From NCBI GenBank assembly GCA_934096715.1, contig CAKOMQ010000002.1, forward strand, positions 24,132 to 88,131: a DNA stretch of 64,000 nt. Direction: 5' to 3'. The DNA is from an uncultured Bacilli bacterium (GTDB lineage: Bacteria > Bacillota_I > Bacilli_A > RF39 > UBA660). Both the position numbers and the translations under genes were made by a program. Of this stretch, positions 5,451 through 11,413 are shown piece after piece. Within the stretch, counting starts at the first letter, position 1; the number at the start of each line of letters is the position of its first letter. A model generated the notes under the pieces. The model saw only the letters and a list, made by a program, of their open reading frames with translations, made no database searches and had not been told where the DNA came from.

Positions 5451-6646
5451 TATAACATCTCTTTCATTATCTTATCTTTATCTTTTAATAAATCTACTAA
5501 CTCATCTATTTCACTTTTAGTATTATAGAAATACAAACTTACTCTTATTGAATTAGATACACCTAAGAAATTCTTAGTAAGTTTAGCACAATGATTACCT
5601 GCTCTTACACATATATGATATTTATTCAAATAATAACTTACATCTTCTGAAAATAATCCATCTACATTAAATGCTACAATAGCACTATCAGCTTCTAAAT
5701 TAAGTATATCAATATGTTTTATTTTAATTAATTTTTCTATTAAATAATTTCTTAATTCTTTCTCTCTATCAATAATATTATTTAAACCTATTTTATTTAT
5801 ATATTTTATACTTTCACCTAGTCCAATAACTCCCGCTACATTAGGTGTTCCCGCTTCTAATCTAGTAGGTAATCCTTTTAACTCTACTTCATTTATATTA
5901 TCAAAAGATTCATTCATTCCCCCACCTAAATTAACTGGTTCTAAATTATCCAATAGTTCATACTTACCATACAGTACTCCAACTCCTGTAGGTCCTAACA
6001 TCTTATGTCCTGAGAATGCTAAAAAGTCTACATCAGTATCTATTACATCTGTTTTTATATGTCCTATACTTTGAGCACCATCTACTACTACATAAATATC
6101 ATTTTCATGAGCATACTTAGTTATCTCTTTAATAGGTCTTATATCCCCAATAACATTTGTTATATGGGCAAGAGATATTACTTTAGTATTTGGTGTTACA
6201 ACACTTTTTAAGTTTTCAAGCGTTACATGATAATTCTCATCAAGTGGTATATACTTAATAACTGCTCCTTTAGTTCTAGCTAATCTAAACCAAGGTAATA
6301 CATTAGATGCATGTTCACTCTTAGTTATAACTATTTCATCTCCAGGTTCAATTAAATTACTAAAGAAACCATTAACTATCATATTAAGAGATTCAGTAGC
6401 ACCACTAGTAAATACTATTTCTTCTTTAAGTCTTGCATTAATATATTCTCTAACTAACTCTCTAGTATCTTCATATTCTTCGTTTACTTTATAAGATATA
6501 TCATAGTCTCCCCTATGAGCATTAGCACTATAATTAGAATAATAGTCTACTTGTTTATCTATAACACTAAAAGGTTTTAAAGTAGTCGCACCATTATCAA
6601 AATATATTATATCTTTTCTTAACATTGGAAAGTCTTCTCTATTCAT
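5450..6646 (-). CDS. sufS: Cysteine desulfurase (SufS, PLP-dependent)
   Basis: PLP-lysine motif SGHKMLGPTGVGVLYG. Class V aminotransferase fold. Confidence 0.9.
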   Translation of the reverse strand: MNREDFPMLRKDIIYFDNGATTLKPFSVIDKQVDYYSNYSANAHRGDYDISYKVNEEYEDTRELVREYINARLKEEIVFTSGATESLNMIVNGFFSNLIEPGDEIVITKSEHASNVLPWFRLARTKGAVIKYIPLDENYHVTLENLKSVVTPNTKVISLAHITNVIGDIRPIKEITKYAHENDIYVVVDGAQSIGHIKTDVIDTDVDFLAFSGHKMLGPTGVGVLYGKYELLDNLEPVNLGGGMNESFDNINEVELKGLPTRLEAGTPNVAGVIGLGESIKYINKIGLNNIIDREKELRNYLIEKLIKIKHIDILNLEADSAIVAFNVDGLFSEDVSYYLNKYHICVRAGNHCAKLTKNFLGVSNSIRVSLYFYNTKSEIDELVDLLKDKDKIMKEML

Positions 6647-6657
6647 TTTACACCTCC

Positions 6658-7314
6658 TTAATTATAAAATTCTTTTATATAATCATCCATATTACTTTTT
6701 ATAAATCCATTCATTACTAGTTCACTACTAAGTTTTTCACTTAATCCTTTACTCATTAAATAATTAACTTGTTCTGTGTCTACTCCGCTAATAGTGGCAC
6801 TATGATTTGCTTCCACTTCATTGCTATCACATACAATAATTGGATCTATTTCTATATATCCATGAGTTATTATTCCCTTAACAGATTCACTCAAATAATT
6901 ATCTTTACTACTTTTATTTATATTAGCCCTTACAACTATACTAGATAATCCATTATTAGATATATTCTTAATTAATATATCAGTCTTATTATTATCATCT
7001 TCTATATTATTTACTACTTCTAAATAATTATCTTCTTCATTTACATAAGAATAATTAAAATTAATACTTGAATTACTAGTTTGATTAATCTCAATATATT
7101 TTAATTTGCATACATTATAAATATAAATATCAAGTTTACTATTATCTTTCATATTTATAACTAAATTTTCTATATTTTGATTAACTATATATATAATAGA
7201 TTCTCCATATACATTTAAGAGTATTTTACTATCTTTAGTAGTTAAGTCATTTATACTATTATTAATATCAATATTACTATTTACTAATATTTTATTCACA
7301 TTCTTCATAATCAC
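6658..7314 (-). CDS. sufD: SufD-like Fe-S assembly protein (short, 218 aa)
   Basis: C-terminal SufB/D signature (...YLMSKGLSEKLSSELVMNGFI). Lies between sufC and sufS. Confidence 0.65.
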   Translation of the reverse strand: MIMKNVNKILVNSNIDINNSINDLTTKDSKILLNVYGESIIYIVNQNIENLVINMKDNSKLDIYIYNVCKLKYIEINQTSNSSINFNYSYVNEEDNYLEVVNNIEDDNNKTDILIKNISNNGLSSIVVRANINKSSKDNYLSESVKGIITHGYIEIDPIIVCDSNEVEANHSATISGVDTEQVNYLMSKGLSEKLSSELVMNGFIKSNMDDYIKEFYN

Positions 7315-7332
7315 TTACTTATTTAGCCTTAT

Positions 7333-8064
7333 CTAAATATTTTTAAATCCATTTTTTAATATATCTATAGCTAATTCTTTATCTCCAGATTTAACTATTT
7401 TTTTATTATTTAAAACATGTACATTAAACTCATCAAAATACTTAATTAATCTTTCTTCATGAGTAATAATTAATATCGAAGGTTTATATTCCACATAGTA
7501 TTCTTTAATATTATTCATAACTACTTTGACACTATCAACATCTAGTCCACTATCTATTTCATCTAAAATTATAAAACTAGGTTTAATAACCCACATATGC
7601 ATAAGCTCTATCTTTTTTCTTTCTCCCCCACTACAAGAAACATTTATATCTTTATGAATAAAACTTTTATCCAAATCAAGCTTTTTACAGATATTTTCTA
7701 ATTCTCTATTAAATTCAAATATATTAATATTTTCTTTATTCTTTTCGTTAAGAAGAGTTCTTAACATTAAAGCATTACTTACTCCTTCAACTTCAATTGG
7801 ATTTTGACTAACACTATAAATACCTGCTCTAGCTATATCAGTAATACTCTTACCTAGTAGTTCTTCTCCATTATATTTAATACTTCCCCTAACTTGATAA
7901 TCTTTATTACCAGTAATAACCTTAGTAATACTAGATTTTCCAGCTCCATTCGGACCCATTAAAACATGAATCTCTCCATCTAATATATCTAAATTAATAT
8001 CTTCTAATATATCTAAATTATCTACTTTAACAGATAAATTCTTTATACTTAACATAAAAACCAC
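7333..8064 (-). CDS. sufC: SufC Fe-S assembly ATPase
   Basis: Walker A GPNGAGKSS and ABC signature SGGERKK. Confidence 0.9.
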   Translation of the reverse strand: MVFMLSIKNLSVKVDNLDILEDINLDILDGEIHVLMGPNGAGKSSITKVITGNKDYQVRGSIKYNGEELLGKSITDIARAGIYSVSQNPIEVEGVSNALMLRTLLNEKNKENINIFEFNRELENICKKLDLDKSFIHKDINVSCSGGERKKIELMHMWVIKPSFIILDEIDSGLDVDSVKVVMNNIKEYYVEYKPSILIITHEERLIKYFDEFNVHVLNNKKIVKSGDKELAIDILKNGFKNI

Positions 8065-8189
8065 CTATCTAATTTTATCAAATTTTGTGTCTTTTGTCAT
8101 TAATAGTAAATAATTTATTTATTTTTAAAAAAATGGTTTATATTTCGGATATTTTATGATAAAATATAAACTATAAGGAGTTGATATAC

Positions 8190-9233
8190 ATGGATGGAAT
8201 TGGAAAGAATTTAAAAAGAATACGTCTTCTTAAAAATCTATCTTTAAAAGAAGCCGGTAATTTATTAAATATGAGTCCTACCGCTATTCAAAAGTACGAA
8301 AAGGGAGAAATTATACCCGACTCAAAAAAAACAATTGAATTTGCTAATGCTTATAAAGTAGACATAATAGACATTTTAAAAATATACAGCGCACCAAAAA
8401 TGAGTTTTAGTTCATTTAGAAAAAGAAAAAGATTAAGTGGTCAAAAATTAGAATTATTAGAAAGTCTAATTGAAAATGAAGTAAGTAAATATTTGGAAGT
8501 AATAGAATTAAACAACATTAATTATCACAAAGTATGTTTAAAAAAATATAATTGCAATTCATTATTAGATAGTGAAAATGCTGCTTTAGAATTTCGTAAA
8601 TACATTAATATTTCTCCTAAGCAACCTATATCTGATTTAATAAGCATTTTGGAAAATCTAGGAATATTAATTATTCAAATTAAAAATATAGACAATAAAT
8701 TTAACGACTTTGATGGATTAAGTGAAATAGTAAATAAAATACCCGTAATCGTTCTTTTAGATGATATCAAAGATGGCGCCAGACAAAGATTTACAATTGC
8801 TCATGAACTTGGACATTTAATTTTAAATATAGAAGATAACTCTTTAAATGAAGAAAAATTATGCGACCGATTTGCAAGTGCTCTTCTTATGCCAAAAGAC
8901 GCTGTTATAAATGAATTTGGAAATAATCGTAAGAACATTAATTTCTTTGAATTAATAGCGTTCAAAAAAGAATATAAAGTGAGTATTGCCGCTATTAACT
9001 ATAGACTTAAAGACTTAAATATCATATCTTCTTATTTATATAAAAATTTAAGTATTCTAATAAACAAGAAAATTGGTAAAACTGATCCAGATCCAATAAG
9101 TCCTGAAAAATCATATCAATTTAAAAAAATAATATACAAACTAGAAGCAGATGAAATAATATCAATAAATAAAGCTTGCGAATTAATGGGGGTCACATCT
9201 AATGAATACAGAGAAGAAAATTATAATAACTGA
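8190..9233 (+). CDS. XRE-family HTH domain fused to an ImmA/IrrE-type (COG2856-like) HExxH zinc metallopeptidase domain
   Basis: N-terminal HTH (LKNLSLKEAGNLLNMSPTAIQKYEKG) and C-terminal HEXXH (IAHELGHLILN). ATG 8190 with RBS AAGGAG 9 nt upstream (the ORF track used an upstream TTG). Confidence 0.75.
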   Translation: MDGIGKNLKRIRLLKNLSLKEAGNLLNMSPTAIQKYEKGEIIPDSKKTIEFANAYKVDIIDILKIYSAPKMSFSSFRKRKRLSGQKLELLESLIENEVSKYLEVIELNNINYHKVCLKKYNCNSLLDSENAALEFRKYINISPKQPISDLISILENLGILIIQIKNIDNKFNDFDGLSEIVNKIPVIVLLDDIKDGARQRFTIAHELGHLILNIEDNSLNEEKLCDRFASALLMPKDAVINEFGNNRKNINFFELIAFKKEYKVSIAAINYRLKDLNIISSYLYKNLSILINKKIGKTDPDPISPEKSYQFKKIIYKLEADEIISINKACELMGVTSNEYREENYNN

Positions 9234-9705
9234 TACCAATATTATAACTGATTTATATATTGCAGGTGTCTTAGAAGAATTTATTCTTTTAGATAATATT
9301 TACATTAGTGATATAGTAAAAACTAATGAAATAAACAACAAAACTTGTGATTTAAAATTAATAAGCAAATTCAAAACAGTAGAAGCAAATTCTATGGAAC
9401 TTTTGGAAGCAAGTTATTTATCTATCGTAGAAAAGAAATTATCTATATTTGATTTACTAAATTTTATTATATGTAGAGACAATAATTACATATTAGCAAC
9501 AGGAGACAATCGGTTAAAAGAATACTCAGAAAGTCATAATATAGAAGTAATTAGAACTTTAAAGATTATTAAAGATATGTATAATTCAAAAAATATCTCT
9601 AATAAAAAATCTATTGATGCTTGTAATAAATTAAAGGAATCAAGCAAAACAAGAATACCTATAAAAGAAATAGACAATTTGATTAATTATTTAAAAAAAT
9701 ATTAG
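9202..9705 (+). CDS. PIN-like nuclease domain protein (DUF4411-like), putative toxin or effector partner of the upstream HTH-peptidase
   Basis: N-terminal hhhDTNhhh motif (IIITDTNIITD) and downstream T.D motif (ILATGDNR). Start overlaps the end of the upstream gene by 32 nt. Confidence 0.6.
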   Translation: MNTEKKIIITDTNIITDLYIAGVLEEFILLDNIYISDIVKTNEINNKTCDLKLISKFKTVEANSMELLEASYLSIVEKKLSIFDLLNFIICRDNNYILATGDNRLKEYSESHNIEVIRTLKIIKDMYNSKNISNKKSIDACNKLKESSKTRIPIKEIDNLINYLKKY

Positions 9706-9733
9706 AAACTAAGTAATTGGGTTTCTAATATTT

Positions 9734-11413
9734 TTATCTTTCTAAATAGTCATTTAATTCTAATTTATTTGCTTTTATAACTAGTGATTTAACAGTGTTT
9801 CTAACACTTTGACCAATTGTTTTAATGTTACCACCTACTACTTTAGCAATCTCTTCATTTGACGATTTCTCATAACCTTCAAGTCCATAATACATATCTA
9901 TCATTATTCTTTTTCGCTCATCTAATGAATCTAAAAGTCTTGAAACATCTTGTTTCATTAGTTCTTTCATAACTTCGTCTTCAACACTCATGTCGTCATA
10001 TAAATCATATTCAATGGTAGAGTCAAATACTTCACTCTCCATACTAATTAAGGAACATAACCATATAACCTGAGAAGTATCTAGTTCTAAGAATTCTTTA
10101 ATATTAAGGATAAGTTCTAATCCATCATAATCCTTATAAAAAGCAAGAATAGTTCTAAATTTTTCTAACGTTTGATAATATAATTTAATTTCAGGAGTAA
10201 ATTCAATTTGAATGCCTTTACTAACAATATAATTTACGATAGTTTTAGTAACATTTTTATATATTAAACTATCTATTGCTAAACTATGATTATATCTATT
10301 ACCATATTTACGTATATCTTTAATAGTGTTAATTAAAGCAATATTACCTTCTTGTAATAAATCAGATGCAGGTATACCATTATTAGAATATAATTTTACT
10401 ATTTCCATAACTATACCTAATTTAGATGTAACTATTTTATTTAAAGCATCATCATTACCATTCTTATACTCCATTATAAGAGAATCAATTTCTTCATCAC
10501 TAGTTTTTTCTAGTTTACTTATTTCATCTTCATACACTATAAAATTATCATCAAGTATAACTTTTTGTGATTTAAAAGCATCTTCTACTCCTTTAAGATT
10601 TTTAATGCAATCTTTTACCATTTCCTCTTGCTTTTCTATGTTATCTTCATCTACACCCAAAGATGAGAATATCCTATAAAGATTTTTAAATTCTTCTTCT
10701 TTTTGCTTACCAATATATCCGTATAGTTGATTTTGTTTATAGACAAGTGGTACATTTCCATCTAGGTTATGCATATCATAATCTCTTTTAATTTTTTGAA
10801 ATTCTTTTTCTTTTTCTTCAACACTCATATTTCGATATTTTTTTTCTCCACCAATTTTATTAATAATATCATCTGCATAAAATATTGGATATAGATCACT
10901 TATCTGATCACTTATTTGTTCGTAACTAGAAAAGAACGTACTATTAAAATTATCACTTTTATTTTGAATATATTGAAAACGTCCATCTTTAGAATAATAG
11001 CATAAATATGGTTTAATAAAACTGTATTTTAAATATCCAAAATTTGTCAACTCGGTTATTTTCTCTTCTAAAAAATCTTTGCCTTTTCCAAAATGATAAT
11101 AATTATAAAAATTATAAACTGTGTTAACTAATTCATTTCCAATATAAAAATCAGCCTTTAAAAAATGACCATCAATTTGATTTAAATATTTTTTACTCCA
11201 CTCCGCATTTTCAGAAAAATACTTAAATAAAGCATTTGAATCTGCTACTTTAAAGCTTTTTTTAATAACATGTTGATTACCATCTAAAGTATTATAATCT
11301 AATCTATCACTTTCTTCTATTCTCTCTATTTCACTTTTTAACAATTTATCCATAGAAGAATCTAAATAATAAAATACTACATATTTACTTTTATCATTCG
11401 TTTTATCAGCCAT
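9734..11413 (-). CDS. Sigma-70 family RNA polymerase sigma factor homologue with a ~330-aa N-terminal extension of unknown function
   Basis: Regions 1.2-2 (DLLQEGNIALINTIKD..YGNRYNHSLAIDSLIYKNV) and 3-4 (RKRIMIDMYYGL...EEIAKVVGGNIKTIGQSVRNTVKSL) recognisable. N-terminal 330 aa has no match I recognise. Confidence 0.65.
   Translation of the reverse strand: MADKTNDKSKYVVFYYLDSSMDKLLKSEIERIEESDRLDYNTLDGNQHVIKKSFKVADSNALFKYFSENAEWSKKYLNQIDGHFLKADFYIGNELVNTVYNFYNYYHFGKGKDFLEEKITELTNFGYLKYSFIKPYLCYYSKDGRFQYIQNKSDNFNSTFFSSYEQISDQISDLYPIFYADDIINKIGGEKKYRNMSVEEKEKEFQKIKRDYDMHNLDGNVPLVYKQNQLYGYIGKQKEEEFKNLYRIFSSLGVDEDNIEKQEEMVKDCIKNLKGVEDAFKSQKVILDDNFIVYEDEISKLEKTSDEEIDSLIMEYKNGNDDALNKIVTSKLGIVMEIVKLYSNNGIPASDLLQEGNIALINTIKDIRKYGNRYNHSLAIDSLIYKNVTKTIVNYIVSKGIQIEFTPEIKLYYQTLEKFRTILAFYKDYDGLELILNIKEFLELDTSQVIWLCSLISMESEVFDSTIEYDLYDDMSVEDEVMKELMKQDVSRLLDSLDERKRIMIDMYYGLEGYEKSSNEEIAKVVGGNIKTIGQSVRNTVKSLVIKANKLELNDYLER

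Follow-up and report, generated by a model that had tools for sequence, protein, structure and literature searches.

Proteins in which an XRE-type repressor is fused to a COG2856 peptidase are often linked to PIN and RelE toxins, and a protease-controlled three-component system has been proposed for them (Makarova 2009, PMC2701414). An arrangement in which a helix-turn-helix (HTH)-DUF955 gene lies upstream of a COG2405 PIN gene has also been described, including the pair of Geobacillus sp. Y412MC61 (Matelska 2017, PMC5499597), and an association of PIN domains with the ImmA antitoxin node has been noted (Ernits et al. 2023, PMC10440598). The phage-protective version was named RosmerTA, RmrA being its antitoxin, and a construct deleted for rmrA could not be transformed (Millman et al. 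2022, bioRxiv 10.1101/2022.05.11.491447). In Streptococcus pneumoniae, Spr1629 neutralises Spr1630, and this RipAB pair, a Rosmer system encoded on the chromosome, has a physiological role (bioRxiv 10.1101/2025.09.02.673660). ImmA/IrrE peptidases with XRE partners also control ICEBs1 and many prophages (PMC2701414). We analysed here a two-gene cassette of this kind, located in a stretch of 64,000 nucleotides (hereafter the window) of contig CAKOMQ010000002.1 from an uncultured Bacilli bacterium. Its gene 1 encodes an XRE-peptidase fusion and its gene 2, which starts inside gene 1, a predicted PIN nuclease. We consider it likely that this cassette belongs among the type II toxin-antitoxin modules of the RosmerTA / XRE-COG2856 class, with a PIN ribonuclease as the toxin. 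Roughly half of that likelihood goes to phage defence as the function for which the cassette has been selected.

Gene 1 had been presented in a preliminary description of this DNA as an XRE HTH fused to a C-terminal ImmA/IrrE peptidase, and matches in Pfam, PADLOC and NCBIfam agree on this organisation. Pfam recognizes HTH_3 and Peptidase_M78 (Table 1), and 14 RmrA models of PADLOC match the protein, the best one (1.2e-39) over residues 9-338, i.e. the full length. The protein is also matched by the PADLOC capP model (8.5e-19) and by the NCBIfam model of the spr1629-family repressor/antitoxin (5.7e-33), at 114 bits, far under the cut-off of 335. Its homologues number in the hundreds, with E-values as low as 1e-210. 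It carries a predicted zinc site composed of an HExxH motif and a downstream Glu ligand, as do ImmA/IrrE (M78, COG2856) metallopeptidases. The corresponding residues H205, E206, H209 and E222 are invariant across 65 intact copies, as are the linker residues F76 and K78. The solved chain closest in sequence is 9vzy (E 3e-4), a protein of the HTH cro/C1 type. The AlphaFold model of gene 1 is poor, with a predicted local distance difference test (pLDDT) of 64, and its only meaningful fold match in the PDB is CapP (7t5t), the protease that regulates a cyclic oligonucleotide-based antiphage signalling system (CBASS). The C-terminal tail may be the region that binds the toxin. A profile search of the PDB with this tail returned chance matches to designed repeat proteins and nothing else. 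In a partial correlation of the mirror-tree style with toxin divergence, the tail scored highest (0.38, against 0.09 for M78); since this measure is confounded by the gene overlap and by shared phylogeny, it was set aside as a pointer to the domain contacting the toxin.

The identification of gene 2 as a PIN-like nuclease is upheld by its predicted fold, its invariant acidic site and the PIN profile matches of its family. The AF2 model, built on 31 homologues, is of high quality (pLDDT 92.1, predicted TM-score 0.87). When it was compared with the PDB by Foldseek, the top 39 matches were all PIN-domain proteins, mostly VapC toxins, at a probability of 1.00 and with TM-scores up to 0.66; among them are PAE2754, VapC of Rv0301, FitB and Shigella VapC. 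The acidic residues D11, E43, D84 and D102 are invariant in the 65 intact copies of the close clade, T100 being kept in 64 of them, and exactly four residues are invariant among 43 distant relatives: D, E, D, D. A profile of these 43 relatives matches the PIN protein 1o4w in the PDB at 4.8e-7, and 24 of 31 family members match Pfam PIN (PF01850), the best at 2.3e-5. Both the predicted fold and the intact D-E-D-D site thus designate gene 2 as a PIN nuclease. A profile search of 1.84 billion representatives with the gene 2 family retrieved 1,066 relatives.

Within the PIN group, the preliminary description had likened gene 2 to DUF4411, and this assignment has to be abandoned: neither the window protein nor any of the 31 family members matches DUF4411 (PF14367) at E <= 1. 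The family appears instead to bear the DUF3368/COG2405 signature. Its homologues fall into 456 clusters, nearly all of about 171 amino acids and with a precomputed DUF3368 (PF11848) match, and distant members reach PF11848 at 8e-5 to 6e-4, under the gathering score. For the exact gene 2 protein, a precomputed PF11848 match labelled weak is on record, while the current Pfam scan of the protein returns nothing; the NCBIfam scan gave one match only, at chance level. Among 31 relatives scanned with PADLOC, four match anything, namely the separate candidate PDC-S70. By these profile matches, gene 2 probably belongs in the COG2405/DUF3368 (PADLOC candidate PDC-S70) branch of PIN proteins. Standard hidden Markov model libraries miss this toxin clade, and automated finders of defence or toxin-antitoxin systems would probably report an orphan RmrA at the locus.

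The two open reading frames lie where the preliminary description had placed them, with an overlap of 32 nt, and the motifs it quoted are found, IAHELGHLILN in gene 1 and IIITDTNIITD together with ILATGDNR in gene 2. Since TGA is an ordinary stop in the window, where it terminates 13 of the 61 long open reading frames, the end of gene 1 is real and an alternative genetic code could be ruled out. The length of the overlap is conserved among orthologous loci (37 of them have 32 nt, 26 have 38 nt and one has 59 nt), and in 16 aligned loci a GGGGGT/GGAGT element is kept 9-10 nt upstream of the gene 2 ATG. A conserved RNA structure was sought at the junction of the two genes and none was found. Upstream of gene 1, the block AGTTTACATTTCTnCTTTTTnATGATAAAATATAAAC is common to 67 distinct orthologous loci, beyond which the DNA is unrelated. 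This block contains the whole promoter layout: -35, 17-nt spacer, extended -10 and an inverted repeat. In the window, the arms of this repeat are perfect, and the pattern occurs only once in 64 kb, for none expected; further operator copies, which would be the sign of a regulon, were sought in the same 64 kb and none was found. Gene 1 may bind the palindrome and hence regulate its own expression. As read from these features, the pair forms a bicistronic, apparently translationally linked and self-contained cassette, dispensable and equipped with its own promoter/operator. The window is very AT-rich (25 % G+C) and 52 of its 61 long open reading frames lie on the minus strand. The cassette, one of the few plus-strand units, is thus transcribed against the dominant gene orientation.

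The limits of the cassette are given by a near-identical relative, L099, which is 99.5 % identical to the window for EFP, 100 % for L33, 97 % for SufC and 98 % for SufS. The preliminary description had suggested looking for the absence of the module from the same position in related genomes, and L099 offers precisely this. Its site reads sigma-[94 nt]-sufC, the pair is missing, and the homology to the window extends up to 8100 at the sufC side and resumes at the stop codon of the sigma gene (9734-9736), which delimits the cassette (Table 1). In another relative, L098, gene 1 is 97.7 % identical to that of the window and the toxin is frameshifted at codon 40. The more diverged L100 (SufC 87.5 %, SufD 71 % and sigma 38 % identical to the window) keeps the pair at the same site, with 85 % identity for gene 1 and 70 % for gene 2. 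A comparable decay is seen across 80 species: in L069, L075, L086, L087, L089 and L090, gene 1 is intact but the toxin next to it has a frameshift or an N-terminal truncation, and the pair is reduced to remnants in L083 and L092. With a toxin present beside it, gene 1 is damaged in two loci only: in L027, a frameshift at a homopolymer that is possibly an assembly error, and in L034, where gene 1 is a remnant and the toxin displays P153L at an otherwise invariant position. Such a toxin-first decay is what one would predict for a pair in which gene 2 does the harm and gene 1 protects against it. The presence and absence of the pair, as read from these genomes, point to a cassette that is long-lived in the lineage but dispensable.

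The 80 loci correspond to the toxin matches obtained in a scan of one genome per species, and all belong to uncultured gut Bacilli. Carrier genomes are labelled Bacilli, Tenericutes, 'Mycoplasma sp. CAG:472', Candidatus Alloscybalousia, Caccenecus and Pelethosoma; two of them are closed, at about 1.5 Mb each. We take the carrier lineage to be RF39-type. In virtually every locus an orthologue of gene 1 (59-76 % identical) stands directly upstream of the toxin, and the pairwise identities of the two proteins co-vary (r = 0.85). Flanking genes, on the other hand, are different in almost every species. A common flanking gene is found in 86 % of the locus pairs whose gene 1 identity is at least 97 %, in 13 % of those at 80-90 % and in 1-2 % of those below 80 %. 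Phage-borne copies were searched for in GenBank phages and in IMG/VR and none was found.

More distant homologous pairs (26-32 % identical), from other phyla, display the same organisation, an XRE-M78 protein of 343-354 amino acids followed by a PIN protein of 163-169 amino acids. On a Rhodothermus plasmid the pair adjoins a type I-U CRISPR-Cas system, on a Sulfuricurvum plasmid it lies directly upstream of a type I restriction subunit, on a Paracoccus conjugative plasmid it adjoins CBASS, and on a 4.6-Mb chromosome it neighbours an ATPase and a nuclease-like gene. The gene 1 proteins of these four pairs match RmrA at 1e-41 to 1e-62. Their PIN proteins match Pfam PIN, with DUF3368 in three of the four and PADLOC PDC-S70 in all four. 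Moreover, 17 of the 29 plasmid matches are on conjugative plasmids. Together with the PIN fold and its catalytic site and with the empty site of L099, these defence islands on plasmids speak for the candidate toxin-antitoxin or abortive-infection module announced by the preliminary description.

Table 1. Features of the cassette and their positions in the window
Feature	Position	Strand	Evidence or remark
Whole cassette, 1,633 nt	8101..9733	+	Occupied here, empty at the same site in the near-identical relative L099
Gene 1, RmrA-like putative antitoxin/repressor, 347 aa: XRE HTH + linker + M78 zinc peptidase + C-terminal helical tail	8190..9233	+	ATG 8190, stop TGA 9231-9233
Gene 2, 167 aa, PIN nuclease (predicted toxin): PIN core ~aa 1-116 + C-terminal helices (putative DUF3368 region)	9202..9705	+	ATG 9202, stop TAG 9703-9705
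XRE-type helix-turn-helix, aa 8-59 of gene 1	8211..8366	+	Pfam HTH_3, 1.2e-9
M78 (ImmA/IrrE) peptidase domain, aa 155-274 of gene 1; HELGH at 8802-8816	8652..9011	+	Pfam PF06114 (Peptidase_M78), 4.8e-15
Gene 1 C-terminal tail, aa 283-347, candidate toxin-binding region	9036..9230	+	Conserved motif IISLNKACELLG
Promoter and operator-like palindrome GTTTATAT-N20-ATATAAAC	8136..8171	+	Promoter scan; inverted repeat
-35 TTTATA	8137-8142	+	
Extended -10 TGATAAAAT	8157-8165	+	
Ribosome-binding site AAGGAG of gene 1	8175..8180	+	9 nt upstream of ATG at 8190; read from sequence
Shine-Dalgarno-like GGGGG of gene 2, within gene 1	9188..9192	+	
Gene 1/gene 2 overlap, 32 nt	9202..9233	+	Gene 1 TGA inside toxin codons T10-D11
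Terminator: 15-bp hairpin then U-rich run, between convergent gene 2 and sigma gene	9696..9734		RNA fold; -12.8 kcal/mol, z = -4.4, equally stable shuffles 0/200

The cassette echoes several described systems without being identical to any of them. Like RmrA, gene 1 joins an XRE HTH at its N-terminus to a zinc peptidase of the M78/ImmA type within about 350-400 amino acids, and it belongs to a two-gene operon with a variable toxin. The tested Rosmer toxins described in the papers cited here either have no known function, depolarise the membrane (phage Kita) or target the clamp (RipA), and none is a PIN protein. Here, in addition, the antitoxin gene comes first, with the 32-nt overlap, and a role in defence is presumed by analogy. 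In the case of RipAB (Spr1630/Spr1629), gene 1 matches the spr1629-family model over its whole length and both systems are chromosomal with XRE and ImmA-like domains, but the score given above indicates that gene 1 is not an equivalog, and RipA, which acts on the DnaN sliding clamp, is no PIN protein. The XRE-COG2856-PIN predictions (PMC2701414, PMC5499597) have exactly the domain combination and gene order of our pair. These predictions are purely computational. The clade described here is diverged, AT-rich and barely detected by standard models. With VapBC and UPF0175-COG2405 systems the cassette shares, for gene 2, the PIN fold, the four acidic residues, the closest solved structures (VapC) and, putatively, the C-terminal helices of the COG2405 DUF3368 type; its antitoxin, however, is a repressor-peptidase of 347 amino acids and not a small VapB or UPF0175 protein. 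Finally, CapH/CapP, DdrO/IrrE and ImmR/ImmA also associate an M78 peptidase (HExxH...E) with an XRE repressor controlling the adjacent operon, and CapP is the best structural match of gene 1. In our case repressor and protease are on one polypeptide, and the cargo is a single overlapping PIN gene in place of CBASS, repair genes or a mobile element. The XRE-COG2856 plus PIN class is therefore already known and this pair is a diverged new member of it. What is specific to the pair is a toxin missed by standard models, an overlap fixed at 32 or 38 nt, a promoter/palindrome shared among orthologous loci and the wide retention in a genome-reduced gut lineage.

By analogy with these systems, a working scheme may be proposed. 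Gene 1 would bind the palindrome over its own promoter via the XRE domain and repress the operon, and it would also keep the PIN protein inactive through direct binding, possibly via its C-terminal tail. A trigger, which could be a phage component or, as for the relatives CapP and IrrE, DNA damage or single-stranded DNA, would activate the M78 peptidase. Once activated, the peptidase would act in cis or in trans to cleave the antitoxin, for which the invariant F76-R-K78 linker is a candidate site. The cut would both de-repress the operon and free the toxin. The PIN nuclease so released would cleave RNA and halt growth, and infection would be aborted or retention of the cassette enforced. Both the toxicity of gene 2 and an action of the pair against phages are predictions of this scheme.

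Several observations weigh against the proposed toxin-antitoxin module. Toxicity, neutralisation, peptidase activity and phage protection are all inferred here, and the support drawn from the asymmetric decay and from the defence islands of distant pairs is indirect. The window's own gene 2 protein gave no match in Pfam and PADLOC scans (E <= 1) and fits no RmrT model of PADLOC. As RmrT families are heterogeneous, this missing match lowers formal membership of RosmerTA and not the functional analogy. On the side of the antitoxin, a model at pLDDT 64 does not permit the toxin-binding surface to be located. A UPF0175-like antitoxin domain, the only recurrent Pfam match in the gene 1 tail (9 of 30 members), is a weak lead at most, its best E of 0.08 being not significant and distant homologues having none. 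As for the operator, the centres of the palindrome arms are separated by 28 bp, a wide spacing for an XRE dimer, and the left arm does not follow the changes seen in the right one (ATAAAC/ATTAAC). Furthermore, a pair kept in about 80 small-genome species and absent from phage collections would suit a domesticated host function equally well.

Such a function is at the heart of a different explanation, to which we attribute a minor but real probability: the pair would be a domesticated chromosomal stress switch acting, under control of the host, in growth arrest or signalling, like RipAB or the IrrE/DdrO circuit, and not in phage defence. It would respond to DNA damage, to oxidative or zinc signals or to the status of a protease (ClpX), and would be retained in the gut lineage for that purpose. 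The retention just mentioned, with both active sites intact and no copies in the phage collections searched, is consistent with it. So is the pace of divergence, which remains within the range of flanking core genes: 60 % for gene 1 and 54 % for gene 2 in L061, versus 54-85 %, and 68 and 55 % in L056, versus 50-62 %. L100, moreover, has kept the pair at the same site despite its divergence in SufD and sigma, and the closest named family is the RipB antitoxin, which belongs to a chromosomal Rosmer system with a physiological role. However, the cassette is missing from a near-identical genome, about 10 % of species have a broken toxin, the genome position is not conserved below about 90 % of gene 1 identity, the lack of a second operator-like site in the 64-kb window gives no sign of a regulon, and distant homologues reside in plasmid defence islands.

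Two other explanations fit poorly because of the dispensability of the pair, the boundaries of the cassette and its context. The PIN protein could be a housekeeping nuclease for RNA processing, with gene 1 as its dedicated transcriptional regulator. PIN domains do take part in rRNA/tRNA maturation, the family profile weakly matches NOB1 and RNA-free RNase P, and the pair is widely conserved in the lineage, but a housekeeping enzyme would hardly tolerate an empty site and frameshifted or truncated versions, nor would it change location, have homologues on conjugative plasmids and in defence islands, or need an overlapping peptidase-fused repressor; we regard this as very improbable. Hardly credible, in our opinion, is that the pair is what remains of an ImmR/ImmA-type immunity module after the decay of the prophage or integrative element that carried it, the PIN gene being unrelated cargo. 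ICEBs1 and many prophages are indeed under ImmA/IrrE-XRE control (PMC2701414), and in L005 an integrative element with a serine recombinase and a TraG-like gene lies 1 kb from the pair. Yet the cassette is bounded exactly by its own promoter and by the terminator of the toxin, neither the window nor the majority of the 80 loci has integrase or phage genes at its flanks, the PIN gene is always accompanied by gene 1 and co-varies with it, and IMG/VR and GenBank phages hold no homologues. The type II toxin-antitoxin module hence remains our preferred reading.

The preliminary description had also associated the pair with the neighbouring sigma-like gene in one islet. This gene is to be removed from the module: it stays put in L099, which has no pair, and it is adjacent to the pair only in L100 and in close relatives of the bacterium studied here (L007-L012, L098) and in none of the 80 species-representative loci. 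It is a sigma-70-family gene (559 aa, 9734-11413, minus strand) that evolves extremely fast, being 80-88 % identical where EFP, SufS and L33 are at 98-100 %, and 38 % in L100 where EFP is at 98 %. No known domain was matched by its N-terminal ~300 amino acids in Pfam and NCBIfam scans, and in L008 it is split into two open reading frames. Between the sigma gene and the toxin of L100 (9721-9997), a sufC fragment (aa 3-36, 82 %) is joined to an efp fragment (aa 129-186, 95 %), and intact sufC and efp genes are present as well. These fragments resemble a scar left where the copies of a tandem duplication from efp to sufC met, before differential loss, and such a scar may be relevant to how cassette and sigma gene became neighbours.

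Other neighbourhoods also display particular features. About ten diverged loci (L018, L021, L025, L055, L060, L065, L066, L069, L070 and L078) have in common a stretch …GCAACAAACTGTTTTTTTGTACCTTCACA…CATATAATTTAATA…ATCAATAT…, located about 130 to 55 nt upstream of gene 1. In eight loci the upstream neighbour is a divergent gene for a 107-aa membrane protein, which makes this the most widely retained neighbourhood of the cassette. In L005, from a Hadza gut genome, the gene for a penicillin-binding protein, located about 1 kb downstream of the pair, encodes a truncated product of 315 aa where 635 are expected. Genes for a large serine recombinase and a TraG/T4SS coupling protein come next (6588-10507), which suggests that an integrative conjugative element has inserted in the penicillin-binding-protein gene.

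A broader proposal may also be formulated, and we hold it to be quite unlikely as it stands: the pair, more than a further mobile toxin-antitoxin module, would be a long-resident, lineage-wide switch of uncultured small-genome gut Bacilli (RF39-like), in which one polypeptide serves as repressor, sensor-protease and antitoxin, cuts itself at the invariant FRK linker and releases the PIN RNase, and which would be kept for a host function (phage defence or controlled growth arrest) that contributes to the ecology of an abundant lineage of the human gut. With respect to mechanism, the locus touches a small gap, how a peptidase-fused antitoxin controls an RNase, and opens no new category. It offers a clean natural pair of presence and absence and a conserved promoter/operator. 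For annotation, its value lies in the placement of a poorly detected PIN toxin clade in the RosmerTA / XRE-COG2856-PIN class, and the module stands as a common defence or toxin-antitoxin candidate of a prevalent, uncultured and genome-reduced gut lineage.

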